Shown piece after piece: positions 1-54,089 of a DNA stretch of 64,000 nt. How positions within the stretch are numbered: position 1 is the first letter of the stretch; each line of letters begins with the position of its first letter. The position numbers were made by a program, and so were the translations under genes. Source of the stretch: Amoebophrya sp. A120 (lineage: Eukaryota > Protista > Dinoflagellata); the NCBI GenBank assembly GCA_905178155.1, contig CAJINV010000015.1, positions 705,309 through 769,308 of the forward strand. The letters are read 5' to 3'. Under the pieces are notes generated by a model. It searched no databases. It was given only the letters and a program-made list of their open reading frames with translations, and was not told the DNA's origin.

Positions 1-1134
1 CTTTCAACTCGACAAAGTAGTACACCCACTGTTCCTATCCAGGAAAAGACACCCATCCCCATCCAATTTGTCATGCAAAACACGCATAAGTGCCAATGTT
101 TGTCATGCAAAAAATGGATGGGGATGGGTGTTTTTCCTGGATAGTTCCGGGTACGTCACTTGCATGGATCCCTCGTCTAGAATCACGTCCTCCAAAAGTT
201 CCATCCCACCGCGGATGTTCCTCGCCAAGTGCCTCTGGTTCGTCTGCTCCAGTTATGAGAGTTCTACTACTGCGCAACGAGGACTCCTCCGCACTTGTCG
301 GGCATAAGCAGCAATACAAGCGTCGGCAAGACCAAGAGAATAAAGAGTGCACGTTGATTTGCATGACCACAGATTCACGCGAACAAGATCGTGGTCCTGC
401 TTGGGCTCCTGCCAGACGAGCCTGCACCTGTCATGCAAACAGTGCCAAGAAGCAAAGACCAGCCTTAGTATAGATACTTTTGCATGACAAATGAGGGGTC
501 CTCACAGTACCAGTTGTGCATTCTCGTACCAAAAGATCGATCAGACGGCGGATGAATTTTTCCCGCTTTGTGTCCGAATTGTTCCAAAACTCCGTGAAGA
601 GCCGCATCCTTTGGGGGTAGGTGAGACGGTGCTTGAAAAAGTTCAACACGTCGTCGCTAACATTCTTAGTCGTCAAAAACGGATACGAACCCTCCGGAAA
701 GGGTTTGGTGTGCTCGCTATCGAAAAAGCTGCACTTCAGCGGGTTTGTTTTAGATTTACCGGTTTGGCTTGATGAAGAAGAAGCAGAAGGAGTTGTTGAC
801 GCGTTGCTTTTATCGTAAAGAAGTCCACCCCAACTACCGGAAGACGACGGCTGTGGTGCAGCTCCTACTTTCTTCAAAAGCTTTGGCTGGTGCGCCGCAG
901 CAGGATCGGTTGCAAGAAGGGTATTGGTGTAGTTCGTCGGCGAAGAACTCATCGTTCCACCAGGCAACATTTTCTCGACCGCACCACCGGAACCCTTGGA
1001 GCTAGAGTTTGAGTTTTTGCCGGCTCCTGGTCCTGCTGCAGAGTTAAAATCATGCTGTCTTCTTAGTCGCACGCTGTGGTGCTGATCCTCGTCGGTTGAG
1101 TGCGATGTTGCGTCGGAATCCGAGGAGGCGCCTT
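1..1134 (-). CDS. Hypothetical protein, 3' part runs off the window; exons approx. 1134-529, 248-144, 30-1 (possible upstream exon 1240-1516)
   Basis: ORF 431..1072 joins in frame, after removing elements 254..528 and 36..143 plus 5 bp each, to give ...RRLIDLL/EQTNQRHLARNIRGGMELLEDVILDEGSMQVTYPE/QWVYYFVELK. No family recognised. Confidence 0.65.
36..143. mobile_element. Introner family A (108 bp)
   Basis: TIR TATCCAGGAAAA..CACCCATCCCCATCCA / TGGATGGGGATGGGTG..TTTTCCTGGATA; perfect 5-bp flank GTTCC on both sides. Confidence 0.95.
254..528. mobile_element. Degenerate introner-like intron (275 bp)
   Basis: Ends TATGAGA / TCTCGTA, flanks CCAGT/CCAAA, internal GCATGAC motifs; element plus 5 bp removal restores frame. 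Confidence 0.65.
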
Positions 1135-3259: not shown

Positions 3260-5760
3260 TTACCGGTCCCAAATGCCGAAACCATCCATAACCAAAGCGT
3301 GTTGGTCGGTATCAAGTGTAAAAGTGTCTGGGCGGTCTGGAAGATTGCCAGGTTTGTCATGCACATTTTGCGTGACGTCTGATGTCTGTGATGCCTGCCC
3401 TAGCGTCACAGATTTTGTGAGGGCTTCCTGATGCCTATACCGCATGACCAATGCTCTTTCCGTGTAGCAAAACTTGGGCTCTCTTTGGTGCTGCTCATGC
3501 AATACAGAGATTTTTAGAATCCAAAATCAGCATGACAAGTTGGATTCTTCCAGACCCAGACATTTTTACAGTTGATAGTCGGGACGTTGAAAAAGCGCGT
3601 ACCCGTTCACCCACATAGCGAGATATCCAAAGTAGTAAACAAGTTTTCATTTCCATACACGTACGATAAAAGCTGTTCGTTGAATGATGCCAGGGTGCAT
3701 CATCTTCCTGACTAAGTACCGTCTTATTTGAAGTTCGGTTTTTATTTTTTACTTCTCTCGAAGCAAGAGAGCATGACAAAGAACTCGGGTGATGTTGTGT
3801 CTTCACAGCTTGTTCAACGAAAATATCCTGCGGCGGTAGTTCAAGTTATTGAGTTTAATTTTGATGAATACTGTGCGATGCATTCACTGATATTAGGCCA
3901 ATTTTTTACATTTCGTACGTGTCCGGTAAAGAAACAGAAAGTTTGTTTTGCGTACCAGCGAGGAGACATCGTTCGGGAAGGCTTGGAGGTCCTGGATGTG
4001 CCAGTTTTTATTTTTGAACCGTTTCATGTCCCGATATCAAGTGCAATTTTGTCTGGGTCTGGAAACCTGTGATGCTGAATTGAGCATGATTGAAGCGCTT
4101 GCAATGGCAGCCAAGCATGATAATTTTTTGAGACGCCTTCTGATGCCTAGCACGCATCACAAATTGCGTTTTTGCATGACAAAGAATCCTTCTCTTTTGC
4201 TGCTCATGCAACACAGATTTTCCGGGAATGCAAGACACGCATCACAAGTTCCACTTTTCCAGACCCAGACATTCTTGCATTTGATACCCGCACCGTTTTG
4301 TCAATGATGATGAGCCGCAGATGGCCAAGCTTCGGATCTTATGCAGCGCAAAAGTATCGTACTCGTAGTAATTGCATTTGTGCATGACAAATCTTTTTCT
4401 CAAGGGAAATCAGCATTACAAGTTTACTTTGTAATGCTGGGCTAATTTGTAATGCAATTTATACTAGTACGATGCTTCTGCATTGCATAGATCTGCATGG
4501 TGAACCCCGTCCAGCATGAACACTTCCCACCCACTGAACAGCGGCGGCGTGGCGGGAGAATTCACATCGAAGGCCTACTATCAAATGTAAAAGTGTCTGG
4601 GTCTGGAAGATTGCCACGTTTGTCATGCATATTTTGAATGACCCATGACGTCTGTGATGCATGACCTAGCTGGCATCACAGATTTTTAGAGCACTTTTTG
4701 ATGCCTCTACCGCATGAGAAACGCCCTCTCCACGTAGCACAAACTGGAGTCCTTTTGCTGGTCATGCAATACAAATTTTTTTAGAATCCACAGACAGCAT
4801 TACAAGTTTAGAATCTTCCAGGCCCAGACATTTTTACATCTGATACCTTCCATGTGTTTACCACTGTGCGGAGAGGAGCAGGCTCAACGTCCTGGTCGTG
4901 TTCCGGCCGCTGCAGCTGGTTATCAACTGTGAAAGTGTCTGGGTCTGGAAGATTGCCAGGCTTGTCATGCATATTTTGCATGACTCCTCAAGTCTGTGAT
5001 GCATGCCCTAGCATCACAGATTTTTAGAGGGCTTCCTCATGCCCATTCCGCATGACAAATGCTCTTTCCGTGCTGCAAAATTTGGACTCTCTTTGTCTTT
5101 GCTGCTCATGCAATACAGATTTTTTTAGAATCCAAAATCAGCATGACAAGTTGGATTCTTCCAGACCCAGACATTTTTACAGCTGATACTGCTCCCCGTC
5201 TTGCAGCTGGTCTTGTTGATGTTCTTGCTCGTCGGAATTGTAGTGGCCTTCATAACGCTATCCTCTGCAAGAAAAGTGAGTATCGCTATCGCGCTCTCAA
5301 TCTGAATGACAAGTCTTGTTTCTTAGGCAGAAAGAATTACAAAGTATTTCACTTTTATTAATCTTCATGCTGCGCAAGTTATTTGATGTCATGCGGTTGT
5401 TGATACATAAAGCTCCGAATCAGTACTGCGATATTTTCACTTTTGCAATGCATAAACGCGGATCCGGGAGAAAAGCAAGGCCATGGAGCTTGTCGTGCTC
5501 CTGGTTTGCCTCGAGCTGGTCGTATTCCTCGGGATCTGGGTATCCTGTGCAAAAACTCAACGTACCAGTAGTAGTACCCATCCCACCAGATTTATGTCAT
5601 GCAATTCTTGCTCTTGTTCTTCTGGCAAGTAGGGCCGGAGGTCGTCAGTCACTCCTCGTCCTCCCTGATGTTGCAAAATTTTTGCATAAATAAGGGCGTT
5701 GATGCGTAGCTGTGTATGTTGGGTGGAGCAAGAACCTTTCATGGCGCTCCTCCTCTAAGC
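3260..5760 (-). CDS. Hypothetical protein split by at least 6 introners (5' end may extend to about 5950)
   Basis: Hand-spliced: DPEEYDQLEANQEHDKLHGLAFLPDPR/YEGHYNSDEQEHQQDQLQDGEQ/LQRPEHDQDVEPAPLRTVVNTWK/AFDVNSPATPPLFSGWEVFMLDGVHHAD/PKLGHLRLIIIDKTVR/DMKRFKNKNWHIQDLQAFPNDVSSLVRKTNFLFLYRT...FGYLAMWVNGYALFQRPD/QHALVMDGFGIWDR*. The frame is kept at every marked element junction. Confidence 0.8.
3310..3577. mobile_element. Introner family B (268 bp)
   Basis: TIR TATCAAGTGTAAAAGTGTCTGG / CCAGACATTTTTACAGTTGATA; TSD GTCGG/GTCGG. Confidence 0.95.
4035..4286. mobile_element. Introner family B (252 bp)
   Basis: TATCAA..TGTCTGGGTCTGGAA / TTCCAGACCCAGACA..TTGATA; flanks CCCGA/CCCGC. Confidence 0.9.
4340..4489. 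mobile_element. Introner family C (150 bp)
   Basis: TIR TATGCAGCGCAAAAGTATCGTACT / AGTACGATGCTTCTGCATTGCATA; TSD GATCT/GATCT. Confidence 0.95.
4579..4845. mobile_element. Introner family B (267 bp)
   Basis: Family B TIRs; flanks CCTAC/CCTTC; interior is the reverse complement of the 59880..60145 copy. Confidence 0.9.
4921..5188. mobile_element. Introner family B (268 bp)
   Basis: Family B TIRs; flanks CTGGT/CTGCT; close relative of 3310..3577. Confidence 0.9.
5259..5454. mobile_element. Diverged family C-like introner (196 bp)
   Basis: TATCCTCTGCAAGAAAAGTGA / TCACTTTTGCAATGCATA; TSD AACGC/AACGC; frame restored. Confidence 0.85.
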
Positions 5761-5969
5761 AGGAATACATAAACAAACGGCCACCTCGAGTACTCACTAG
5801 AAGATGTTGTTGTAGCCGCGGCGGCCACGAGGGCGGCGCTACCTGGTTGTACAACGTACTTAAGCATGACAAGAAAAGCCAGATGCTTGTTGTTTTCACG
5901 ACTCGTGAAGTAGTAGACCCCGCTCTTCAAGAGTGGTCTTGCGAATGAACTACAAATCCCCAAAAAAAA

Positions 5970-7270
5970 CATTCAGAAAAAAACACCCATCCCCATCCAT
6001 TTTGCCATTTTTTTAATGCAAAAAAATCATGAAAAATAAATAAAAAAAGAAAAAAATCCGAAATATTTTTTGCATGGCATTTGCGAGAAGTGCTAACTGA
6101 TGGAGCTAGCTAGTGGCGTCAGTGGCTGCACATACTTTCGCTATGTGATTTTAAGGTGGCTAGCTGAAACCGAGATCCGAACCACGACCGAGAAATACAA
6201 CTCGCCGAAGCCAGTTCTCGTCGTTGGGCACCTCTGGTCCCATGGAGGTTTTGAACTTTTGGCGCAGTCACGCACAGATACCCAGAGGTAGCGGAGAACT
6301 CGCCAAGAACGCCGCGGCTGCACCATTGAAATTAGCGGGAGCAGCACCAGCTGCGCAATTATCATCGATAGTTGCAGAGCAGATCTTGCGTTCCAGCTCA
6401 CGAAAAAAAAACGATTTTTTTTTTCGCAAAAAAATGTCACGCTTTTGAAAATGCTCACTTTTTTGATGGATGATGTTTTTTCGCACGACGGCACCACAAA
6501 TATTGGATCGACCCATCCAGTCCATTTTCTTGTAGAAGTGGCTGGATGGGTCGAGGCAATATTTGTGGTACCGTCGTGCGAAAAAACATCATCCACAAAA
6601 AAGTAGGAATTCTTGCAATTTTCAAAATGACACTAGAATTTGTGGATGATGTTTTTTCGCACGACGGTGCCACAAATATTGCTTCGACCCATCCAGCCAT
6701 TTCTAGAAGAAAATGGACTGGATGGGTCGATCCAATATTTGTGGTACCGTCGTGCGAAAAAACATCATCCATCAAAAACAAGGTCAATTTCAAAAACGAA
6801 ATTTTTTTGGAAAAAAAACAAAATCAAAAAGTTTTTCCTACGGCAGCCTTGCCGAACAGCAAAAGTCTTCCCGTCCTGAATTTGTATTATCCACTCGAAC
6901 CGAAAGGACAGCACGTGTCAAAATCCATCCCAGGTCCGTCGCTTTCATCCCATGTGGCGACGCGGCGGCATGGCGATATGGCCACTGCAAAATGGGCCAA
7001 GCGATGGGGCCAGAGTCGATGTGCGGCGGCGAAAAGAGGCTTTTGCAGGATCTGGAAGTCGTCGCCTGCTGCGATGACCTGTGATGGACCTAGCAAATTT
7101 CATTCATGTCAAAAGTTCCTAGCTATGACGCCACTTTAGCTATGTCACCATTAAAGTGATTGCTTCCGATGCCGATTGGTGACAACCCTGAAAATTTTTT
7201 GAAAAAAAGCCGGTTTTTTTTTGTTGAAAAAATAGCAAAATGGATGGGGATGGGTGTTTTTTTCTGGATA
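5970..7270. mobile_element. 1301-bp non-autonomous TIR element, copy 1 (family A termini)
   Basis: Reverse complement of 43588..44888 almost base for base. Left terminus altered (CATTCAG instead of TATCCAG) and no TSD visible. Confidence 0.9.
6460..6778. repeat. Compound palindrome: four approx. 57-bp units in U,U',U,U' order forming two mutually inverted approx. 135-bp hairpins
   Basis: Unit TGGATGATGTTTTTTCGCACGACGGYRCCACAAATATTG..TCGACCCATCCAG at about 6467 and 6643, reverse complements ending at about 6594 and 6771. Confidence 0.9.
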
Positions 7271-7342
7271 ATTATCTTCTTGACTTCTACGGGGTGAAGA
7301 TGGGCACTACGTAGTGTACGTAGAACTAAAAGTTCTTTTTAC

Positions 7343-10300
7343 TCAGGATAGCACTTCGCCAATGATCATGGGAACCCAAACCGGCTGCTTCCCCGGAGCC
7401 AGAACCGCATGCGGTTCGTCTTGACCGAGAAGCTCCTGCCTGTATCCAAGAAAAAAAACGTTGTTAGTGTAAATTTGTGATGCGCAACACTCAAGATGAT
7501 TTCGTGTTTCATGCATGGCATGCATCGTAAGGCCCATTAAAGGGCGTTTTCACGTCGTACTATCTGCGCATGACAGGTTTTTGCTGTCATGCCAGACAAA
7601 TTTGTAATGCTATTCCTTCAAAAAAGTTAGACCTACAATGTTTTTTTCTTGGATAGCCCGGTCTCGGGGTTCACGACCGCGACGTTCTCGCGCCCGTGCA
7701 ACAGCTTCTGCACTTTCGCGTGCAAAGCGCTCCGCTGCCACTTGTGCAGGTTTGTCGCTTCTGAGCCCACCAGCGTCGCCGGGTCGACCTCCTCAACCAC
7801 CGGACGACCCGCGTTTGCAACAGCGTGAGGAGGAGGAGGGCCCGCGGCCGCGCCCGCAGGGTTCCCGAAGGGGACTCCACCACTGCGCGGGCGAGGCAAC
7901 GGCCCTTCTTGTAGAAGTGGTCCACCAGTAGCAGTACCCCCGACAGCATCAAGAGGCGCGATCTATCCAGTGCAAAGATCGTGTCTGGGTCGGGAAGGAT
8001 GCAAGGTTTGTCATGCACGTTTTGCATGACTTCTCCTAACGTCAGTGATGCATGGACTAGCATCACAGATTTTGCGAGGGCTTCCTGAGTGATGCCTTTA
8101 TCGCATGAGAAATGCCCTCGCGCCGTGGCAAAAACTGCACCACCACCTCTTTTACTGTCCATGCAATTATACAGATTTTTGTAGTATTTGTAGTATGCAG
8201 ACGCAACATCACAAGTTACATCCTTCCAGACCCAGACACATTTGCAATCCATACAGCCCCTCCTCCACCTGCATCGTGCGGCCCCAGACTGGCAGGAAAA
8301 GAAGAACTTGTACCTTGCGCCGCGGCAAGAAATGCTGGATCCTGTGCGTGAAGATGTTGTAGCCCTCCTGCATCAAGATCATGTTCATGTTGAGCAGGTA
8401 AGGCTGGAGCAGGTGGTTGGAGACCATACTCGCCCCCTTGTAGTCCTCCCCAGCCGACGGCAGGAAGAGCATGCGGAATCATGCTTCCACCCGCTACTGC
8501 TTGTAGTCCAGTATGCGGATCCAAATCACCACCGCCGAGATGAGATGTTGCTGTATCAAGACCATGGCTGAGTAGAAAGCCCCCATCTGGGGCATTTATA
8601 TTTTGCATTTGCTCCGTAACAGTGCTGCCGGTAAAAGCACCAGCCCCAGAAGCCGTGGCTGGCGAGGTGGTCCTAGACAGCCCCACCTTTTGAATCAGCT
8701 CCCACAAATCGGTTCCCACCTGCTGCTTCACCACTTCCGTGAGCCCGGTCTTGCGGCTGAAGTAAGCCGCCCGCACCACCGTGTTACCACTTGCCGGTTG
8801 GTCGCGAGGCCAGGCGACGGCCACCACCGCCACGTTTGCCTGCGGGTTGGCACCACCCGAGTAGGGATTTTGGTACGCCGTGGACATGGCAATGTCGGCT
8901 AGAATGATCTTGCCCTCGCACCGCAGCTCCGCCTTGCCTTGCGGCTGAATACTGTGTCCGTTCACGATGCGGTCCACCCCGAAAAACTGCAGAGCAGCTA
9001 TCCAGGAAAAAACACCCATCCACATCCAATTTGTCATGCAAAACATACATAAAGTTCTGTGTTTGTCATGCAATAAATGGATGTGGATGGGTTTTTTTTC
9101 TGTGGATAGCAGCATCGACTTCACTACAGTCGGGCGGCTGCTCTCCCGGGAGCCCATGAGTGCTGCGGCCCCAAAAAGGGGACGGCGTCCGCAGATTGGG
9201 GTTCTGATAATAGACTGCTTTGCCAAGGTATGGGGGTGCCAGGATCGAAATCGACAAAATCGAAAAAGTTTGCGACGCATAGAATGTAGGGCACGCAAGG
9301 CCTGTATTGGGGAGCAGGCAAATGAGACCGATTGCGTTCTTGAGCCCGCTTAAGGGTATGCAACGCGCTCCGCTGCCGGAGTTGGAGTAGCATGACAGGA
9401 GCAGTCTTCTTTGCCCAAACAGCACGACAGGCTGGATTTTGGTGCTCCTGAAATTTGTCATGCGCCAATAGAAAACCGAGCTGGTATCGGTTTTAATATG
9501 CGTCGCAAATTATTTCGAGTGCGTTGATTTCGATCCTGACGCCTCCATACCTCGAGGGCGGGGTCCCCGTCCATCACATCGAGGCCATCGAGGTCCTGGC
9601 TCGTGCTTGTCTCCACGAGCGAAAAAAGGTCCTCGTGCACTGCGCGTAAAACGTCGTCGCGAAATTTCGGGTTTTGCATGATCTCGTTCTCGATCTCGGC
9701 AACGCTCGCACTGTTGACAACAGTCCCGCGCATTGTCCGAGCCTGGCTCTCGACCGCGACTCGAAGCACATGATCCATCACAGCATTGCTGATGCTCGCA
9801 TGCATGTACAGCGTGCGCCCCACCACCACCATGCTGTCCGCGCGCGTCCGGAGTTTTTCAAAAAGCCAGCCGCCCGGTCCCCAGGCCTCTCCGTAGTCCG
9901 CCCGAGGAGCCCAGGACCCTGTAAAAGGGTCCGGGTTCGCGTTCTCAGCTGATATTGATTGGACCGACGAAGGTGGTCTGCTTGTGGCCCATGAAGATTC
10001 GGGCTCCTTTATCGTATGCAAAAACGTCCCCGCCACGGCATAGTCAAGATGGGAAATCGGCTAGACAAATCCACAAGCTTTGGCTGTATTGCATGACAAA
10101 TTTGGACTCGTAGCGTAGTGCTGTTTGAGCTAGCTCAGCAGCATCACAAATCTAGTACATCATGCTGATTGGAGCATGACAAATTGCAAAAAACGACTAG
10201 AAATCGCTCCTCATGGGGCTCCACATGAGAAACATGTTCAGCATGCAGATGTGCATGACAACTATGGGGTGGGGACGTTTTTAAATACGATATCCTTGGT

Positions 10301-12103
10301 GACTGCCTCGGACAAGTACTGGCCTACAGGGTGACCGACGTATCAAAATGACAAGGCCCCCCTCGTCCCCATATCAAAACGGGGATTTGTGTAGCGTGAT
10401 TTGTGATCACGAGTCTTGTTCACGTTGTCATGCTACTTAAAAGGGAAGAGATCGATACGAACAGTACTACAGTAGTACTGGCTTGGGTCGTTGGAAAGCC
10501 TTGCGGCTTCAGCATGACACGACGCAACTGGAAGCGGAAAACAGCATGACAGATTACCTGCAAGCTTTATTTCTCTTGGCCTTCTAGCAATACATTTGTG
10601 CTGTATAAATGCAAATACAGCATCACAAAATTTTTTCGGTATGGGGAGGGCGGATTTTTCCTCACAATACAAACCCGGGCGTCATCTCCAAGTACCGCAG
10701 CCGGAACATCTCGTGGTTTCCCAACAGAAAAATGACCTTCCCGCCAACCCGTTCCCTATGAATTGCAAAAGTATCGTACTCGTATAAATGCATTTACAAA
10801 TTTCCTCAGCACGAGAAAGAAAATTTGTAATGCAGATCTGCGTCTGCCTTAAGACAAAGATTTGTAATGCAAGACGTGCATTTATACGAATACGATACTT
10901 TTGCACAGGATATTCCGCTTTCTCCTGCAAATCGAAAATCAGGTCGTAGATTTCCCGTCCATCCGGTCCACGATCAACGATGTCGCCCGTGCAAATCAGC
11001 GTTCGACGGCCCATATGCATTGCAAGCATGGAAGATCTGGGTCACTGGATTTGTCGTGTGAGATTTCAACGACAGCAAGACCAAGATCTGGTAGACGTAG
11101 ACTACAAGTAACCCGCTTATGTTTTGATGCCCCCGTGCTTTTGAGTGCATGGGAGTTTGTCATGCGTGTTATGATTATGTATGGTTCATAATTTCTCAAG
11201 GAATCTGTAGAAAAAGTTGGCCTCGTCTACTAGTAAAAACTTGTCATGCTGTTATGATGTTGCTGTACAACTGGCTACTCATCTGCGATGTCGACTTCAG
11301 CAACACAAGTTTCCAAACCCAGATCGATATTTGCAATGCATAGCCACCGATCCACGTGACGCCGCTCGCAGCTTCCAGCACGCCCGCGAGCACGAGGGCT
11401 TCGCGCGCGGCCGTCAGTATCCAACAGAAAAAGTTAGGTAGGGCATACAATTTCCTGTAATGCAAAAATAAGTACACAAGCTGCATTGCATCTCCCAAAC
11501 AGAATGCTATGGGCTCGCCCATGACAGTTTTCAATTTTTGTTCATGTAATTAAGTAGTTTTGAAGAAAAATTTATGCCCCGCCTGCTTTTTTCTCTGGGA
11601 TAATCAGGTCTCCATGAAAATCTGCCACGGACAATACGACGTCCATCGTTTCTATCCAAGAAAAAAACGCTGTTCGTGTAAATTTGTGATGCGCAACATG
11701 CAAGATGATTGCGTCTGTCATGCTTGGCATGTATCCTAGGGTCCATTAAACCAGGGCGTTTCCACGTACTGTCTGCGCATGACAGGTTTCCCCCGCTGTC
11801 ATGCCAGACAAATTTGTAATGCTGTTCCGCCAAAAAAGTTACACCTACAACGTTTTTTTCTTGGATAGTTTCGTCGGCAGAAGGGCTTGAAACAAAGAAG
11901 GCCTTTGCCACTTCGGGCGGCATTCCAGGCAAGTGGGTGGACCGTTCTAACTCGGAAGAAGCGCGGTTCCACAGACTCAATAACGCGTCCTCGATTTTTT
12001 TTGCGCTCGCGAGTAAGAACTGCTCGTCGCCAGAAGGTGCGGTGGCCGAGGTAATTTCCGTAAACACCGACCAGATGCGGTCCGAGTATGGAGGCGCTCT
12101 CAA
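7343..12103 (-). CDS. Shewanella-like (SLP-type) calcineurin-like metallophosphoesterase with long low-complexity C-terminal extension; 10 introner-type introns; both ends uncertain
   Basis: Spliced motifs in order: VLSVADFHGDL (DxHG), ICTGDIVDRGPD (GDxxDRG), FLLGNHE (GNHE), LYMHAS, SPFWGR..DCSEVDAALQFFGVDRIVNGHSIQ, CEGKIILADIAMS. This is the PPP-family/SLP signature set. Confidence 0.9.
7443..7655. mobile_element. Introner family D (213 bp)
   Basis: TIR TATCCAAGAAAAAAAACGTTGT / ACAATGTTTTTTTCTTGGATA; flanks GCCTG/GCCCG; homologous to 11653..11867. Confidence 0.92.
7964..8253. mobile_element. Diverged introner family B (290 bp)
   Basis: GTGTCTGGGTCGGGAAGGA / TCCTTCCAGACCCAGACAC; flanks diverged, but element plus 5 bp removal joins GGA/APLDAVGG in frame. 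Confidence 0.8.
8999..9108. mobile_element. Introner family A (110 bp)
   Basis: Same TIR as 36..143; TSD GCAGC/GCAGC. Confidence 0.95.
9229..9549. mobile_element. Introner family G (321 bp)
   Basis: TIR TATGG..CAGGATCGAAATC / GATTTCGATCCTGACGCCTCCATA; flanks diverged; removal joins PALE/GKAVYY in frame. Confidence 0.85.
10010..10292. mobile_element. Introner family F (283 bp)
   Basis: TIR TATCGTAT..AAAAACGTCCCC / GGGGACGTTTTT..ATACGATA; TSD TCCTT/TCCTT. Confidence 0.92.
10341..10669. mobile_element. Diverged introner family E (329 bp)
   Basis: TATCAAAATGA..CCCCCC.CGTCCCCATA / TATGGGGAGGGCGGATTTTTCCTCACAATA; interior homologous to 48757..49056. Confidence 0.8.
10757..10912. mobile_element. 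Introner family C (156 bp)
   Basis: TGCAAAAGTATCGTA / TACGATACTTTTGCA; flanks TTCCC/TTCCG; opposite orientation to 4340..4489. Confidence 0.9.
11014..11342. mobile_element. Degenerate introner (329 bp)
   Basis: TATGCATTGCAA / TTGCAATGCATA termini; removal plus 5 bp joins WIGG/RRTLICTGD. Confidence 0.8.
11418..11602. mobile_element. Degenerate family D-like introner (185 bp)
   Basis: TATCCAACAGAAAAA / TTTTTCTCTGGGATA; flanks GTCAG/ATCAG; joins HGDL/TAAREA. Confidence 0.8.
11653..11867. mobile_element. Introner family D (215 bp)
   Basis: TATCCAAGAAAAAAACG / CGTTTTTTTCTTGGATA; TSD GTTTC/GTTTC. Confidence 0.95.
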
Positions 12104-12929: not shown

Positions 12930-12970
12930 GCCGGAGGCCATGATCTTCGTCCCAAATTGGCCCAGACCCA

Positions 12971-13170
12971 CTGATCGCGATTTCAAATTGATGATCGCGA
13001 TTTCAAATTGATGATCGCGATTTCAAATTGGTGATCGCGATTTCAAATTGGTGATCGCGATTTCAAATTGATGATCGCCATTTCAAATGCCTGATCGGCA
13101 TTTCAAATGGGCGATCTCCATTTCAAATCGCTGATCGCAATTCCAAATTGACGATCTTCATTCCAAAACC
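12971..13170. repeat. Tandem minisatellite, 20-bp unit NTGATCGCGATTTCAAATTG, about 10 copies decaying rightwards
   Basis: Read directly; no unique spacers. Confidence 0.95.
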
Positions 13171-18322: not shown

Positions 18323-19237
18323 TATGCATTGCAAATGTGTCTATTGGGTCCTCGGGAAATAAAAATCAAAACTGTAGTGATGCGAGTTGTGTGAACGCAA
18401 AAAGAAAAAACTGCGCTGCGAAGTCCCCAAAAAATACCCGACCTTTGTCTCAATGAGGGAGCATCGATCTCCCGCACAGAGGAGTACGCATAGGGAAACC
18501 ACCGCAGAATTAATTTGCCATGCTCCAGGTCCATCCCAGAGCCAGACCTTCTTGTAGAAAGATGCAAAAGTAGCCGCGGCATGATCATGAATAAAGTGTC
18601 TGCTTTCATTCTTCGAGACCCAAAAACATAGGCATGCGATATTTCGGGTTAAAAGGCAAAAGTAGGGGAATATGAACGAGAAACGCAAACTTCTCCTCGT
18701 CTACTCCGCGAGAACGACCCCAGCAAAGGGAAGAGGCTGACTGCGTCTCTACCTGCACCTGCACACACTGACACGAATCTAACAACTTCTCATGCATAAT
18801 TTGTGCAAAAATATGAACTAGAAGGAACAGGAAGAGTTGCCATCAAATAAGAAACTAATAAGATCGCGCATCTTCTTAGTTCTTGCTCAATGTCGATATG
18901 CAGAGACTCAGAAACTCAAACTGTTTTAATCGTAATACCAACTCGAACGCGACATTGTCGCTGTTGTAGTTGTCATGTCTACAGAAATTCAAATTGATTC
19001 TGGTGCCAGCGCCGACAATACAACGGCGTCAATGATCAATGAAAGAATGGTAACAAGAGGAAGAGCCGAGGCCGACCCGTAGTCAATAAATAAACGCAGT
19101 CAGCAAACGAGTTCCTTTGGAGGTCCTCGTCAGGCGGGGACGAGGCGAAGTCGTGTTTTCACTCGTGTATCGAAAAACAAGCCAGGCAACCATGTCGTCC
19201 AGACTGTTCCACTTGGGAGGAGCTTGACCGGGGGGAC

Positions 19238-29420: not shown

Positions 29421-29871
29421 CAGCCATCATCGTCCATACCTGAATTTGTCATGCGGAGTGACATACTCATACTAAAGCAAAAGTTACATCAGCAGGCTTT
29501 ATGCACTTCCACTTGTTGTGCGGCATTACAAATTCGAACGACGTCGCCGGCACATCGACACTAATTTCCTACGCCTAAAACTCGAATTCTCCTCGAGTTC
29601 CTCATCGAATCGCGCAACGAGCTCTTGAAACGTCTCGTCCGGGATGTGCAAGGGGAAAATACTTGGAACGCACAATGTTTTTAGGGATCATTTGTCCTCG
29701 CTGCGATTCAAATGATGTTTCATGCATCAAAAAATCAAGACAAGTTGTCTTGCGAGGACTACATCTACAGCTACACCAAGCATTGTTCTTGGTGCTAGTG
29801 ATGCAGGAGGAAATTTAAGGTTGGATCAACATAATTGCTTCGTCCCCATGTCGTGAGCAGCGCTCCTGTAT

Positions 29872-35538: not shown

Positions 35539-38507
35539 TTATTGAAACAACCTCACGATATCCCTCGAAGCCTGTTTTGACACTTTTTCGGAGTTCGAAA
35601 TCTCAGTTTCCAACCTCCTCGCCTCGGTCTGGAGCGATTCCTTGCAGTTTTTCAATTTCTGCATGGCTTCCTCGGCCCGTTTCCTAGTGGAAAGCTTCGA
35701 GTTCTTCTCCTGCGAAAGGCGCGCACGGATTTTGTCAAGGTCGAGGTTGTCCATGGCCTTCGATACCGTGGAAGCCTTTGGCCTTGCTTGCGCTGGCGGA
35801 GCAGACTGGGGAGGCTGCGTCGAATTATTCACCTTTCCTGGGTCCGACGTTTCCTTCTTGTTGGTTAATCTTAATATCCCGGTCGTCGATGAGACAACGG
35901 CAGTTTTTGCAGTGGTTTGAGTCGACAACAGCCGGAAGATTTCGTCCGCTGCCCTTTCCTCCGCTGTTGAATACGGTTGCAAAGAGGAGGCTGTGCTGCA
36001 AAAGCCGTCTTCCGAATCCTCACTCCTGCTCTGCCGCGCTGCTGGACGTCCGACTTGATTTTCCGTCAACCTTGCCACGTTTTTTCGCAGCGACTCAGCT
36101 TCAAGCACTGCGGAGCACAGCACTGCCTGCAGCTCTTCGTGAAGATTTTCAGCTGGCGTATGATGGTCGTGCTCGCTCCTGTGTAAGTCAGGTGCCGAGT
36201 CATCCGCCCTGTAGCACCTGTCTGGAAGCCGCACACCACACGGAGCGAAGCCGGAAGAAGATGGGTTCGCAGGCGGTGGATTTTCGCTGGTCCTTGTGCT
36301 TGTTCTTTCTAAACGCGGACTCGTTCTTGTCCTGTTACTGGCAAGATGATCACTCTCATCTTCCCCCTCCTCCATTCCTCCAATCCCGCAAACTACACTC
36401 TCCGCCAGCACGAACTGGTCTGCGTACATCGGCGCACAGACCACCGGCACAGAAGCCGCAATCGCTTCGTGAATCGAGGCGAAGCCGCAGTGCGTGATGA
36501 AGACGGCTTTGTGCCCGTAAGCTTCCAGGATCAAGCGTTGCGGGGCGAGGTGTTTGTAGTTTTGCTGGTGCTGTTCCAGGGATTTCAATTTCTGTTGAGT
36601 TTCTGGTAGGGCACTAGCTGCAGAAGCAGTCCTGTCTCCTCCGTCACAGCTTGTGCTGGTGCTGCCCTTCGCGTTTACGTCGCTTTGACGAAACAGAACT
36701 CCCTCGTCGTTGAGAAAGACGATGTTTTCGTAGGACGAAGACGAACAAACCGAAAAATTTCCGACTGTTTCACATTCACAACTGTTCGGCGAATAATTAT
36801 CTTCAATCTTCTCCAGGTCTCGACGACTGGCGGTGATGAGAACAACGGTCGCACCAGCGTCGACGACGTTGTATCGCTGCCCAGAAAAACCGCTACAACT
36901 GCCTTCTGGACCTGATCTCCTACCACCACCACGGCCGTAACACGCCACTAGCAACTCCAGCAGTTTTCTCGGTACCTTCGTCACCGAACCGAAAGAGACG
37001 TAGATCACTCGGGAAGCACTGCTCACCAGCTCCTGCGTTTGCTCGTCTTGGAAGATTCTGATTCTCATTGGGACGTCGGGTGGAAGCAGCTGCTGTCTAC
37101 GCGCAGTATTGACGTCGTCCCACGGCCGCGCGATCGGATCAATGCCGAGAAACACCACTTTGCCCTTCGCAGTAGAAGTCGCGGCATCTTTTGCAGTCGT
37201 GTCGCCGTCTCGGCCATGATTCATCCTCGCAGCTTTTTCTTTCTCCTCAGCTTCTTTAACCTTCCTCTGCACCGCAATCGGCGCTAGTTCCGGAACAGAG
37301 AAGCACAGCGACAAGGCCGCTCCAGTCGGCGGGAATGTCAAGTCGATCCAGCATATCAAATGCAAAGATGTCTGGGTCTGGAAGGGTGCAGATTTTTGCC
37401 ATGCTGTTTTTGCATGACCCGGAAGGTCTGGCAAGCAAGGTCTAACATCACAGGTTTTGAGAAGCTGCGTCGATGCCTAATCCGCATGACAAATCGCCTA
37501 TTTTTTCGGTGACAAAAGTGGGCAACTCTTGCTGTCTATGCATGAGAGATTTTTGTGTGGTGTGAGATGCGCATCACAAGTTCCGTCTTTCCAGACCCAG
37601 CCATTTTTGCAGGTGATACAGCACGAAACTGTGCAAATCGGATGTTTTATCCCGAGCGAGTTGGCGACGAGAGAAGCCTATGCAGTGCAAAAGTATCGTA
37701 CTCGTAGTAATCGCAGTCATGCATTACAGATTTCTTTCTCAATGTAAATCCGCATTGCAAATTCTATTTCTCATGCTGAGGAGATTTGTCATGCGATTTA
37801 TACTAGTACGATGCTTTTGCATTTCATAAAGCCCAGGGGGTCGCGACGTCGTAGAGGAAAGCAGTTGTAGACAAAGACTGGGACCACGACGTAGAGGTGG
37901 TAGTTGTAGTCTTCAGCAACGCACCAACTTCTCCTTGTGTGGATGTGGTCCTCGACGTGCCGCTAAGATGAGCATGATCTTCGTCTGCACGATTCACGAT
38001 TCCATCCGCCCACTGCAGCGCGGTGGAAAATTGCGACTCCGTTTTGATGGAATGCGCAGGAGGGGCTGGTGCAGATTCCTGTCGTGTCCTCGTGCTTGGA
38101 TCTGATATCGTGACGGACAGGTGAGCGTCGTTCTGGGCGCCCGTTCGACGAGCATCAATTCCGCACCCGGCGTCCTCAGATGCAACGACCTCCAGAAATT
38201 CGTCCCTCGCTTGTTCCGCCGTGTAATTCCCCACTTGAGAATCCGCCAGGATCATCACGTGGATGTTGGTGACGAAAAAATTGGTCCTGCGGTTATGCAA
38301 TTCCAATTGCGAGTCGCTTTTCTCTTGCGTGACAGCATCAGCAAGTCCTTTCGCTATCCGCACCAAAGGCTGCACGTGCGCGGCGGAAGCCAGGTTCACG
38401 AGGAACAGGAAATCGAAGGAGCGGGAGATGTTGGCTTGCGCGTGCCCCTGGCCCTGCTGCTCTGCAGCATCAGAAGTTGTCGTAGAAATAACCGTGGGCA
38501 TGATCAT
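35539..38507 (-). CDS. UDP-glycosyltransferase, GT1 family (3 exons)
   Basis: N-terminal AAHVQPLVRIAKGLA (GHxxP motif), VIYVSFGSV, and PSPG-type box APQRLILEAYGHKAVFITHCGFASIHEAIAASVPVVCAPMYADQF; in-frame joins across 37679..37828 and 37354..37618. Confidence 0.9.
37354..37618. mobile_element. Introner family B (265 bp)
   Basis: Family B TIRs; TSD CAGCA/CAGCA. Confidence 0.95.
37679..37828. mobile_element. Introner family C (150 bp)
   Basis: Family C TIRs; TSD AAGCC/AAGCC. Confidence 0.95.
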
Positions 38508-42600: not shown

Positions 42601-45301
42601 GTACGAAACTTTTGCAATGCATATGAACGCGTCAAAACCCTCCCGCAACTGCACCTGCGTCCGGTTTTCCGCCAGACAGTTCGTGGCCTGCGCTTTATCA
42701 AATGCAGAAGTGTCTGGGTCTGGAAACTTGTAATGCTACAAATGAATGGTAGACGCACTGCAGTACCCAGCTATGCATGACAAATTTCTTGACTGCCATG
42801 TCTTACGTATTCCGCATGGCAAACTGCGTTTTTTCGTGACAGGTAAGAGGGCCTTTTCGTGCCTATGCAACACAGATTCTCGAGTCATGCCAGACAAGCA
42901 TGACAAACTTGCATTCTTCCAGACCCAGACATTTTTACAGTTGATACGCTTCCAGGAGGAGCAAATTGCTGTAGATCTGCCGATCCTGTAGGATTTCCAG
43001 TTTCAAGCCCGTGGTAAGTTTCTTCTGCAACGAGGAATATCGGTTCTTCATCCCCTCGGCTAAGAAATGGAGGGCGGCTTGCTCGGCCTGTTGGGTCGAA
43101 GAAGAGGAAGAGGATGTCGCTCCACTACCACCCGATTGGAAAATCACCGGTGAAGAGCAGTTTTCCAGCACCGTTCCGTACTCCAGCGTGTCGCGACACT
43201 GGATTTTCTTCGCGGGACCACCAGACTTCGAACTGGAAGAACTGGCTGGATTGGTTCCGGCAACGACCGCTTTCGGGGTCTGGTCAGCATTATTATCCGC
43301 TGAAGCGTTTGACGACGAGGACAAACTCGCCGTGTCCACCGTCGCCAATAAGTCGCGGATGTTCTCCTCGCAGACCTCGAAAAACGACATGCGGACGAGG
43401 TACTCAAATTTCAATTTCGAGTTTTTCCGTCTTTTCTCCTTTTCCGTGATGGCTTGGAACAGGTTTTTAATCCCGAGCGCGTACAAACCATTCGCTTTTC
43501 CCGACATAATGTCCGCCTTACCGGTTTTCTCGGCGCCGAGGGTGAGGAATACCTTTTTTGGTTTTGGTGATTTTTGTGCTTTCTTGTTATCCAGAAAAAA
43601 ACACCCATCCCCATCCATTTTGCTATTTTTTCAACAAAAAAAAACCGGCTTTTTTTCAAAAAATTTTCAGGGTTGTCACCAATCGGCATCGGAAGCAATC
43701 ACTTTAATGGTGACATAGCTAAAGTGGCGTCATAGCTAGGAACTTTTGACATGAATGAAATTTGCTAGGTCCATCACAGGTCATCGCAGCAGGCGACGAC
43801 TTCCAGATCCTGCAAAAGCCTCTTTTCGCCGCCGCACATCGACTCTGGCCCCATCGCTTGGCCCATTTTGCAGTGGCCATATCGCCATGCCGCCGCGTCG
43901 CCACATGGGATGAAAGCGACGGACCTGGGATGGATTTTGACACGTGCTGTCCTTTCGGTTCGAGTGGATAATACAAATTCAGGACGGGAAGACTTTTGCT
44001 GTTCGGCAAGGCTGCCGTAGGAAAAACTTTTTGATTTTGTTTTTTTTCCAAAAAAATTTCGTTTTTGAAATTGACCTTGTTTTTGATGGATGATGTTTTT
44101 TCGCACGACGGTACCACAAATATTGGATCGACCCATCCAGTCCATTTTCTTCTAGAAATGGCTGGATGGGTCGAAGCAATATTTGTGGTACCGTCGTGCG
44201 AAAAAACATCATCCACAAATTCTAGTGTCATTTTGAAAATTGCAAGAATTCCTACTTTTTTGTGGATGATGTTTTTTCGCACGACGGTACCACAAATATT
44301 GCCTCGACCCATCCAGCCACTTCTACAAGAAAATGGACTGGATGGGTCGATCCAATATTTGTGGTGCCGTCGTGCGAAAAAACATCATCCATCAAAAAAG
44401 TGAGCATTTTCAAAAGCGTGACATTTTTTTGCGAAAAAAAAAATCGTTTTTTTTTCGTGAGCTGGAACGCAAGATCTGCTCTGCAACTATCGATGATAAT
44501 TGCGCAGCTGGTGCTGCTCCCGCTAATTTCAATGGTGCAGCCGCGGCGTTCTTGGCGAGTTCTCCGCTACCTCTGGGTATCTGTGCGTGACTGCGCCAAA
44601 AGTTCAAAACCTCCATGGGACCAGAGGTGCCCAACGACGAGAACTGGCTTCGGCGAGTTGTATTTCTCGGTCGTGGTTCGGATCTCGGTTTCAGCTAGCC
44701 ACCTTAAAATCACATAGCGAAAGTATGTGCAGCCACTGACGCCACTAGCTAGCTCCATCAGTTAGCACTTCTCGCAAATGCCATGCAAAAAATATTTCGG
44801 ATTTTTTTCTTTTTTTATTTATTTTTCATGATTTTTTTGCATTAAAAAAATGGCAAAATGGATGGGGATGGGTGTTTTTTTCTGGATACTTGTTGGAAGG
44901 GTTGTACAACAAAAGGACAAGAAAGCTCTGTCGTGGTATCCGAAGGAAAAAAATATGCATGCACAACGAAATAAACGCACCATCGGAAACGGCATTTAGC
45001 GAGAGTCTCAGCATCAACTACGACTAAGTAAATCTGTTGCAAATCATCGATCTTTCTATCATTATACCCCATTCACCCCCGCCAAACTTTCTGCTATCAG
45101 CGGATTCAGAAACGCGCTTGCGATCGAGTCTGGCGACTCGTTGTTGCTCAAACAGGCGTCCACCTTGATCTTCGTGTCTTTGGAAAGCTCCGTAGACCGA
45201 AGCGTGACGGTTTTCTCATCCGTTGTGAAAACATCTTCCGTCTGGACCAGCTCGTTCGGGCGCCGGGCCCGAATCTTCACCAAGCGGGTGATGCGCTCCA
45301 T
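39656..45301 (-). CDS. Degenerate kinesin motor domain fused to a CCDC78-like coiled-coil protein
   Basis: LVKIRARRP, LAGVNG/VFLTLGAEKTGK (P-loop), RMSFFEVCEENIRDLL, RKSCLTHLLKEVFNG; long coiled coil (ORF 40186..41472); C-terminal EKERAKLLVRATSAEEEL resembles the CCDC78 C-terminal motif as I recall it. Confidence 0.85.
39999..40271. mobile_element. Introner family B (273 bp)
   Basis: Family B TIRs; TSD TGTTC/TGTTC. Confidence 0.95.
41777..42246. mobile_element. Introner family G (470 bp) carrying a nested 145-bp insert
   Basis: Family G TIRs; TSD GCACC/GCACC; insert 41874..42018 flanked by an 18-bp direct repeat. Confidence 0.92.
42471..42623. mobile_element. Introner family C (153 bp)
   Basis: TATCCACTGCAAAAG / CTTTTGCAATGCATA; flanks TGAGC/TGAAC. 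Confidence 0.88.
42696..42946. mobile_element. Introner family B (251 bp)
   Basis: Family B TIRs; TSD CGCTT/CGCTT. Confidence 0.95.
43588..44888. mobile_element. 1301-bp non-autonomous TIR element, copy 2, inside a GT-AG intron of the kinesin gene
   Basis: Perfect TIR TATCCAGAAAAAAACACCCATCCCCATCCATTTTGC at both ends; TSD CTTGT/CTTGT. Confidence 0.95.
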
Positions 45302-51400: not shown

Positions 51401-54089
51401 TTGCGACTGCGGTTGCGCTAGTACTTGGGGAAGGAGGATTCTCTTCGCGAAGATCAGAAATCCCAGTCTGGTTAATATTGGCAGCTGCGCCTTGTTCGGA
51501 AGCTGCTGTGCCTCGTGTACCAGCGGAAGTAGCTGTGCCGCGTGTAGTTGTACCAGCGGAAGTAGCTGTGCCGCGTGCATCTCCAGCATCATCTCCTCCC
51601 AACATGGTCGTACTTCCTGCTTCACCCCCCGGCGCCCCACCAGCGGCAAGAGCTGCAAGCCGGCGCTCCCGATCCTCTCTATCCCGGCTGTCCCTGGTCA
51701 CGTAAATCATGTGCGTCCTCGGCTTCGCTTTTCCCGGGAAAAATACTTTTTTCCACGCGAGCAGCGTGCCCAGTAAAATCGCCAGGTACCCGCCGACACA
51801 CAGCTCGAAAGATAAGACTTGGCTGGTCCGGGTTTCGCCGAAGAAGATCGCAAGTAAGATATGCATTGCAAAAGTATCGCACTAGTATAAACCAGCCATG
51901 CTCCGGCTACCGCCGGAGCGCGCGGCTGTTTGGCCGGGTTTGAACTGCTTGCGGACCGGACCACAACGACATGCATACTTAGGCCCCCTCAGCACCGTCT
52001 GCGCGCTTCCCGCGCCTAAGGGCGCTCTGCGCAGGGAGGAGCTACCACTAGCATTGGGGCAGAACAGGAGGCACCTAGATGCCACACCAGTCCGCTACGC
52101 ATGCCTTTCGTTAATCAAGACGAACCAAGAACCGGCCCGCCCCACCCCATTCCCCGGCGCCGCTTTTTCAATGACTTCAGTGTGGGAGGGGGGCGCGAGA
52201 GGGTGCGCGAGAGGGTGGCGCGAGAGGGTGGCGCGAGAGGGTGGCGGGGGCTGGCGCCGAACAAAACAAGTCCGCGAAGGGCCTGCAATGCTAAATATGG
52301 GGAATACCATGCGGATTCGCGCCCGCCACTTTGTGTCTTTACCCTCTCGCAGACCCTCTTTTTTACCTCTTTTGGGGGTCCCCGCTAATAATCCGGCTAT
52401 ACTCGCGGGTAGAGGTCGACAGAGGTGGCCCAGAGGTGGCCGAGAGGGTGCGCGAGAGGTTGGCCCTTATTCGCGCCACCTCCCTCGCCCTCTGTCGACC
52501 TCTCGCGCCCCCTCTTTTTGACCTCTCTGCACCCTCTGAGGCACTTAGGCGCCGCCTTAAGGTGGGTCCTTCGGCGGGCTATACTCGCGCACCCTCTCGC
52601 CGACCCTCTCGAAAGGGGTCCCGCGCCACCTCTCCACCTCTGTCGACCTCTTTTTTACCTCTTTTGACCTCTTTTTGACCTCTCGGCCACCTCTTGTTTA
52701 CCCTCTGTCTACCTCTTTTTTCGCATGAATATAATATATAGTAATCGCATGACAAATTTTGCCAAGAGCAAAAATGGGATTTGTCATGCTGAAAAAGGTA
52801 GACACAGATATCTGTCATGCACGAACAACAACACGAACGCAATTAGTACGAGTACGATGCTTTTGCAAAGGATATAAGAATCGAATCAACGACATCGTGA
52901 CGCCGCCGCAATATCGAATCCGCTGCAGGGCCTCGAGGTAGAAGGCATCACGGGTTTCAGCGGTTTTCCGGAAATGTTCCAGCTGTTCTTTTAATCTTTT
53001 GTTTTCCTCTTGCAAATCGGTTTGCTGTTGCTCCAGTCTCAGCAGGCGCTCCTCGAGGGAAGTAGGGGGCGCAGCAGCCGCGCTTTCTCGTCGTGGTGAT
53101 CCTGGATTTCTCCCTGGCCTCGAGTGAAAGTTTTCCTCTATTTGCTCTTCCATCTTTTCCTGCAGCAGGGCGGGGACAAATTTCGTGTCGTGCTTGTTGC
53201 GAGGAATTATATCGTCGTCATGGCCCATGCCCATCACCTTCTCGCGCGCAATCTCTTGCAGCTCTTCCTCTTGCTTCATCTCGCCCACCTCTACTTGTAC
53301 GGACACTTTTTCAGCAGCTCCTGCAGCCTCAACATCAGCTTGGACCACGAAAGAACTTTCGCCGTCAGGAGAGAGGACCATTTCCGCGTTCTTGTGTATG
53401 TGTTCGGTATGCTCGTCCTGATTCCGCTCTCCAGCTGCTTTCATGCCTACTTCGCTACCGTCATCGACGTCGTCATGCGTCAAATGTGACTGATCGTGTT
53501 CCCGTGCTATGTGTTCAACAGCAACTTGATGCTGCTGTGCCGCACGACGACCGTCGTTGTGACCACCATCATCACCTACACCTAGTATTCTTCGACGTGG
53601 CTGCAAAAACGAGTTGTTTGATTGCTCTGTTTGTGCATCTGAGTCTGACTGCGTGTTCCTCTTCACAGCCTCGTCTAGATCCTTCACTTCTGAGTAGAAG
53701 CGGTCGCTTTCCACTTGTTGCGCAAGCGGAGCAACTCCAGGAGGTGTAGGCAGCTCACCCCCTGCAGCAGCCTCCGAGTGGTGTGCTAACACAGCCTCCT
53801 CTCCCAGGTGGTCCAGCACTCCGTCCTCATTTCTATGCCGCTCTGCCACCTGCTGGTGGTCTCTTCTTTCTAAAAACTTGTGGTGCGTAGACGAACTAGG
53901 AGCTTCACGCCTGTCATCCCCTGGTGCTGGTGACGCACCACCTGTCGAAAGAGCTGAAACTTGTCTAGGGAAATAACTCTTTTGTAAAACGCCTGAGAAA
54001 TTAAACGCTGTGAAAAGACTCAATAGAATGAGATGAAGAAAAGGCGATCTACATCGAACGACGATGGCATGCTGCATAAACTGCATCAT
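48452..54089 (-). CDS. Multi-pass membrane protein with N-terminal signal-like segment and acidic/His-rich region; 5 introner introns
   Basis: In-frame joins SLIRFL/LAIFFGE, PLHS/YRSWCRWKKLS/xIGDHGD, AHY/VNQLNPD, AMLL/SFQLSKRW; several hydrophobic helices. Frag1/DRAM-like resemblance is only tentative. Confidence 0.85.
48757..49056. mobile_element. Introner family E (300 bp)
   Basis: TATTGCAATGAAAAATCCCCCCTCCCCATATC / GATTTGGGGTGGGAACTTTTTTCACTTTGATA; TSD CAAGA/CAAGA. Confidence 0.92.
49105..49260. mobile_element. Introner family C (156 bp)
   Basis: Family C TIRs; TSD TAGTG/TAGTG. Confidence 0.95.
50578..50905. mobile_element. Introner family E (328 bp)
   Basis: Family E TIRs; flanks CGCTC/GGCTC. 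Confidence 0.9.
50946..51198. mobile_element. Introner family B (253 bp)
   Basis: Family B TIRs; flanks GAACG/GAGTG; frame restored. Confidence 0.9.
51860..52874. mobile_element. Introner family C expanded to 1015 bp by a nested Helitron-like insert
   Basis: TATGCATTGCAAAAGTATCG / CGATGCTTTTGCAAAGGATA; TSD TAAGA/TAAGA; 162 bp remain after removing 51892..52744. Confidence 0.92.
51892..52744 (-). mobile_element. Non-autonomous Helitron-like element, copy 1 (853 bp)
   Basis: Minus strand starts TTACTATATATTATATTCATGCG and ends GCTCCGGC-GGTA-GCCGGAGC-ATGGCTGG; inserted between A and T with no TSD. Confidence 0.8.

Follow-up and report, generated by a model that had tools for sequence, protein, structure and literature searches.

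A shared, spaced internal site in the introners of Amoebophrya sp. A120 as a putative binding array for a mobilising enzyme

The introners of the dinoflagellate Amoebophrya sp. A120 raise a question to which the stretch of DNA analysed here (64 kb, hereafter the window) gives a concrete form: why should introners with different terminal repeats carry, over and over, the same short word in their interior? According to the text of Farhat et al. 2021 (PMC7789003), A120 introners make up about 17% of the genome and fall into 1954 families, no transposase was found, and general transposase-mediated movement was ruled out for them. A site that is shared, selected and spaced would unify the families under one machine.

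Counting both strands, the word TGTNATGC occurs 133 times in the window, in clusters, and the form YYTGTVATGC 116 times against a mean of 2.0 in 100 shuffles (maximum 7), so that the repetition of the motif in both orientations inside introners, as claimed in a preliminary description of this DNA, is real. The middle base V is C, G or A, being T in 2 of the 133 window sites and in 35 of 2164 sites of related loci. Site density is 11.9/kb within elements and 0.49/kb outside them, with 0.09/kb expected by uniform chance; in the host gene of Table 1 the 3390 exonic nt left after splicing are free of sites, and none of the 15 skipped stretches lacks one. The four words quoted earlier from 4579..4845 were found at 4619, 4651, 4673 and 4797, both sites reported for the 108-bp element of family A were recovered (Table 1), and the motif is indeed present in the decayed introns, at 429 and 482 within 254-528 and at 63095 and 63129 within 63080-63200. 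The rarity noted for the long exons at 25-35 kb also stood, with three exact sites there and none in 20-29 kb. Too wide, on the contrary, was the attribution of TGT[C/G/A]ATGC to all introner families, as a 1.3-kb TAT-ended element (43588-44888) is without an exact site. Nor do the interiors prove unrelated in 3310-5188, where four of the six elements belong to one terminal-repeat family; three of these are 80-89% identical and the fourth has the same terminal repeat, thus making the sharing of the motif within this stretch partly plain homology. The form TTGTVATGC resembles the animal Sox-Oct composite site and includes GCATG, the RBFOX word, both likenesses being probably coincidental.

The elements were collected in two ways. 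A motif-blind detector of TAT..ATA-ended elements, applied to the window and to 710 kb of a related public assembly (125 de-duplicated loci of 131), retrieved 476 elements, with a perfect 5-bp duplication in 376. The related loci were chosen by the F0 terminal pattern, and F0 is therefore over-represented among them; they have the same element families as the window, with identities of up to 97%, and BLAST of the window against them gave, among the longest matches, repeat matches only. Rpb1 of the related locus L035 has a best protein match of 86%, followed by matches of 62-67% among which the first to bear a name are alveolates, in keeping with an alveolate source. Recruitment by interior similarity gathered 665 copies in 22 subfamilies and 14 families, of which 575 have TAT at both ends, with a target duplication perfect over 5 bp in 461 and matching at four of five positions in 115. 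Terminal-repeat positions 11-13 mismatch at 0.02-0.04, and the clean A run is missing in F5, F6, F7 and F10. The full site, as a consensus of the 665 copies, reads about RRYYTGTVATGCD, 13 bp long and carrying 15.6 bits, and its tolerance differs by base, with T at V in 33 of 2494 sites and C at +8 in 52 of 2489. No copy of the F0 terminal pattern was found in viral contigs, and Rfam gave no match on the window.

Table 1. Introners, genes and other features of the window (window positions; the strand of a site is given in brackets)
Feature	Position	Strand	Ends and duplication	Sites	Joint and remarks
F8 copy (family A of the preliminary description), 108 bp	36..143		GTTCC duplication	69, 101 (tandem, 32 bp apart)	
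Host gene	3260..11008	-			809-codon open frame restored across 15 skipped introners; 5' part beyond 11008
Introner F0.5	3310..3577		TAT..ATA; GTCGG duplication 3305-3309, 3578-3582	3355(+), 3387(+), 3530(-)	3304>3578
Decayed orphan introner	3624..3954			one exact site 3771(-), two matrix sites	skipped, 3618>3955
Introner F0.2	4035..4286			4068(+), 4154(-), 4174(-), 4239(-)	4029>4287
Introner F1.2	4340..4489		different terminal repeat	4382(-), 4413(-), 4430(+), 4448(+)	4334>4490
Introner F0.5	4579..4845			4621(+), 4653(+), 4673(-), 4797(-)	4573>4846
Introner F0.5	4921..5188			4963(+), 4995(+), 5011(-), 5050(-), 5141(-)	4915>5189
F8 copy (family A)	8999..9108			GCAUGACA alone faces RNA	skipped (intron 8995-9109)
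F3 copy	10010..10292			exact sites facing RNA all UGUVAUGC	skipped (intron 10005-10292)
Tandem array, units of about 20 bp	12960-13170				
F0-like decayed end	18323-18420			one matrix site	
Pair of inward-facing sites	29434-29540		no clear TAT ends	29447, 29523	adjoins the end of an 889-codon frame
Introner-bearing gene	35542-37476	-			UDP-glycosyltransferase domain PF00201, E 8e-8
1.3-kb element	43588..44888		F8-type ends; perfect CTTGT duplication	no exact site, one matrix site	
Tandem array, units of about 21 bp	46270-46335				
Gene taken by eye to be Spt5-like	about 60500-63750	-			

Some elements carry further structure. The 1.3-kb element is 100% identical to 5971-7271; this pair holds an internal 400-bp palindrome (6417-6818), and the 5971-7271 copy, its outer end damaged, is nested in a skipped intron of 1815 nt. 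GC-rich inserts of 850-900 bp, 76-90% alike, are nested within F7, F1 and F3 introners (window about 57792-58694 and 51891-52742; L039 11689-12560; L008 771-1573), which they entered between A and T without duplication; the insert terminates in a hairpin followed by CTGG, and by its ends we take it to be Helitron-like. In the 575 copies, the lengths of insertions relative to the consensus show peaks at 3 nt (405) and 6 nt (92), against 136 of 2 nt, 85 of 4 nt and 44 of 5 nt, in spite of the intronic nature of the elements; the counts include shared subfamily variants, and element lengths modulo 3 are even (193/190/192).

All six elements of 3310-5188 and nine more are skipped by contigs of runs X3-X5 (15 of 18 joints), which represent one sample and whose RNA status is guessed, not on record. 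The joint across the decayed orphan has 29 letters on its short side, and a contig of run X1, of a kind not on record, reads through this orphan uninterrupted (3552-4077). Two RNA runs of 2026, X9 and X10, gave 30 and 13 reads only, nearly all continuing into unlike sequence, and are thus uninformative on the locus. By a look at its motifs, the N-terminal part of the host gene presumably encodes a calcineurin-type metallophosphoesterase; protein searches with two window exons, one of them from the gene at 60500-63750, found no relatives. At every one of the 15 joints in window 3304-10913 the skipped stretch equals the element plus 5 nt, and all 15 fit a sequence-blind RNA ruler that begins 1 nt ahead of TAT and stops 4 nt past ATA, which is fixed by joint 5536>7352 alone and bounded by four further joints. 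Under this ruler, 333 genic copies start with GT (100), AT (87), CT (77) or TT (69), and their intron ends cover all 16 dinucleotides. The two outermost bases, TA, are altered less often at the RNA 5' end (4 of 698 versus 20 of 698, p=0.0014), and this is a positive control, in that the data can detect host selection. Splicing would rely on the terminal hairpin and on the TA at the RNA 5' end, independently of the motif.

Compared with the subfamily consensus, the 665 copies mismatch at 0.045 in the core of the site, 0.198 in the interior, 0.231 at V and 0.132 in the flank. The core comprises seven bases and its sites were defined where the consensus is exact, so that conserved sites are somewhat favoured; near-match sites mismatch at 0.125. 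The low core mismatch, together with the base-specific tolerance and the fixed spacing described below, bears out the earlier claim of a site under selection. Equal decay of motif and neighbouring bases, which the preliminary description had set against selection, is not observed against the consensus, yet after insertion the core does decay about like its neighbours. Parsimony trees put the ratio of core to interior rate at 0.14 for internal and 0.39 for terminal branches, and a two-phase fit, with constraint while mobile and about 0.025 per site of free decay, matches eight of eight site classes (r=0.98). The 131 copies with imperfect duplication show extra mismatch of +0.015 [0.006, 0.024] in the core and of +0.011 [-0.001, 0.023] in the interior, on a target-duplication clock that is itself imperfect (duplication mismatch 0.057/site, above the close-pair prediction). 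Since the core decays about like its neighbours after insertion, selection appears to act mainly during mobilisation. At odds with free decay, the closest copy pairs still have a core/interior ratio of 0.21-0.24, which could be explained by unsampled intermediate copies. In 46 copies with a mutated TAT end no core excess was found (+0.002 [-0.011, 0.016]), the interior being at +0.013 [-0.009, 0.038], both with wide intervals; the non-genic set is tiny (eight copies without ORF, four nested). Moderate host selection on the site may be compatible with these age tests.

The sites are also ordered in space. Same-strand pairs 31-33 bp apart, that is about three DNA turns, are present in 11 of the 14 family representatives; with random placement the best window holds 4.5 families on average, and 11 were reached in none of 5000 trials. 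With the grouped copies set aside, a distance of 31-33 bp separates 118 of the 381 same-strand pairs that lie within 110 bp. Convergent pairs cluster at 15-16 and 44-49 bp and divergent ones at 17 and 34-35 bp. As for the ends, the nearest site lies at 32-36 bp in 10 of 28 family ends, at 40-45 bp in 13, at 52-55 bp in three and elsewhere in two, which suggests that end offsets step by one helical turn; the fitted period is 9.1-10.6 bp by data set, with an any-period p=0.15 in one of them, and what we claim is the clustering, not a strict 10.5-bp period. In the introner at 4579..4845, for instance, the first site stands 42 bp from the end and the tandem spacing is 32 bp. Per 100 nt, private indels number 0.42 in tandem spacers against 0.54, a modest deficit, and the stretch from an end to its first site shows no such deficit (0.59).

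The reading that we favour, with moderate confidence, is that the motif forms a putative binding array for a shared transposase that moves the introners, the enzyme and the binding step being what we infer from conservation and spacing. Several protomers of one DNA-binding protein would load onto a single helix face and keep the catalytic domain at the TAT tip, in the way that the Hermes BED domains engage phased subterminal repeats. A copy whose sites are damaged would seldom be recopied, leaving the site intact in active lineages and free to decay once a copy is stranded. The preliminary description had proposed that the motif serves either the common transposase or a factor marking introns for removal; the former half fits these data, and the latter, as a strand-specific mark on RNA, is disfavoured. 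A candidate for the enzyme class would be the integrase-like (Ginger-type) protein reported for A120 family 38. A Pfam scan found no transposase or integrase domain in 16 window ORFs nor in the 81 longest of 110 locus ORFs (300 aa or more), and no autonomous partner with an integrase-type DDE domain and the same ends is present among these ORFs, which amount to far less than 1% of the genome if it has the published size. Against a transposase array stands the young 1.3-kb element, having F8 ends, no exact site and one matrix site. In addition, a composite F7 element, in which an insert of 890 bp separates one end from its first site, is present at two loci, each time with a perfect duplication of different sequence, so that phased sites at both ends are not required. 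In a bolder version, which we advance only tentatively and hold to be doubtful, one integrase-like enzyme or domesticated host protein would read the 13-bp site on a three-turn lattice and mobilise most A120 introners (tens of thousands) irrespective of their terminal repeats; the families would be convergent passengers, and splicing would follow a ruler of its own, which the hairpin sets at 1 nt before and 4 nt after.

Among the other explanations, the one that survives best, though we consider it unlikely, is that a DNA-binding protein of the host, architectural or domesticated, recognises the site and is recruited by the elements for mobilisation or replication, while the catalytic enzyme reads the ends only. 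A reading at the DNA level and selection during mobilisation fit such a protein equally well, as does the lack of a transposase both in the A120 account of PMC7789003, as far as its text goes, and in the ORFs scanned. However, sites outside the elements are near chance (101 isolated ones versus about 56 expected, decayed elements counted in), so the host does not seem to use the site widely, and sites phased to the tips would point to a physical connection with the complex that cuts.

Less probable still is that the host reads the site, on DNA or chromatin, as a redundant mark by which the splicing machinery is recruited to these non-canonical introns, one surviving site per intron being enough. 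Such a mark would agree with the one or more exact sites kept in all 15 skipped introns, with the one or more matrix sites present in 665 of 665 family copies and in 20 of 21 orphan TAT/duplication candidates, with the low core/interior ratio retained in close pairs and with the report that U1 snRNA was not detected in A25 or A120 (text of PMC7789003). It does not agree with the decay of the core, which in older copies proceeds like that of the interior, nor with orphans of 331 or 196 nt that are still skipped with 2 matrix sites each, the family median being 19/kb. Moreover, 12 of 349 genic copies are without an exact site, two orphans that interrupt long frames (L068 1477-1631 and L062 3155-3265, their splicing deduced from the frame) have no exact site and one matrix site, and a mark of this kind has no need of strict spacing.

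Plain homology, in which a single ancestor made up of a 32-bp repeat gave rise to all families and the motif is the part of it that has survived best, we judge very unlikely. TAT ends and 5-bp duplications are common to all families, and strong sites repeatedly have a weaker opposite site about 15-17 bp away, which speaks for this account. With the sites masked, 214 between-family pairs gave a mean z of 0.25 and two values above 4, which argues the other way by a weak test, as 11 of 17 within-family pairs also fall below z of 4. As a neutral account homology is contradicted: ancestry alone cannot hold a seven-base core at 0.045 mismatch next to a V base at 0.231, and selection is needed even with a common origin.

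Hardly credible, finally, is an action of the motif on RNA, be it through pairing of opposite sites that folds the intron or through GCAUBACA serving as branch point or protein-binding site: in predicted folds site bases are paired more often than the interior (0.77 versus 0.60 in 120 sampled genic copies) and inward sites at both ends fall inside the terminal stem in several families, but self-complementary sites would give this excess anyway, there is no covariation between the V bases of opposite sites (excess -0.005 in 40 pairs), and RNA pairing is unable to explain the avoidance of T at V. The strands facing the RNA are near equal (588 UGU versus 548 GCAU, from ORF-based strand calls that are wrong for four elements at 4035-4921), and among the 349 genic copies with a locus-consistent strand, to which the later strand tests refer, exact sites are UGU-only in 61 and GCAU-only in 60. 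GCAU sites near the RNA 3' end mismatch at 0.053 and their 5' mirror sites at 0.041 (p=0.15); being not better kept, they speak against a branch point. Core conservation shows no 5'/3' asymmetry (0.048 versus 0.050), elements lie in genes 153 to 196 in the two orientations, and the two introns of Table 1 that expose opposite strands of the motif (8995-9109 and 10005-10292) are both skipped.

A binding array for a mobilising enzyme thus remains our preferred reading of the motif. On this reading the signal for mobility is distinct from that for splicing, in what ranks among the most extreme cases of intron gain, and the site can serve both as an exact bait in pull-down and as a key to look for the autonomous element.

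The elements described here agree with the A120 introners in the text of PMC7789003, which are non-canonical introns with terminal inverted repeats made of TAT, seven looser bases and As, with short direct repeats at their borders and in co-oriented genes; that text describes terminal motifs only, and no internal site or spacing rule. They also share the 5-bp duplication, the TA ends, the intron-forming TIR structure and the organism with A120 family 38, labelled 'Ginger; 5-bp TSD, TA/TA termini' by Gozashti et al. 2025 (PMC12130899, sd07 row 580), which differs in its length of about 810 bp and its integrase-like ORF homology, the comparison being by published label. Neither an internal site common to A120 families nor its spacing is mentioned in the running text covered, which includes that of PMC7789003, PMC12130899 and PMC9860276. 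The closest likeness is with the subterminal repeats of hAT elements (Hermes, Tol2, Ac; PMC10368747) and of the Emigrant MITE (PMC1636448), which are short repeated internal sites in both orientations, bound by the mobilising protein (Lemi1 proteins for Emigrant), and whose position relative to the tip matters. As in MITE-type elements, the repeated internal site of the introners is conserved above background and positioned relative to the ends. Unlike the sites of hAT and Emigrant, it is longer (about 15.6 bits), common to 14 families with different terminal repeats and spread over the whole of a short element under a 31-33-bp tandem rule, and its carriers are spliced introns. The target duplication is 5 bp, unlike the 8 bp of hAT elements. 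Introners and subterminal binding repeats are known already; what appears to be new is the internal site shared by A120 families together with its ordered spacing.
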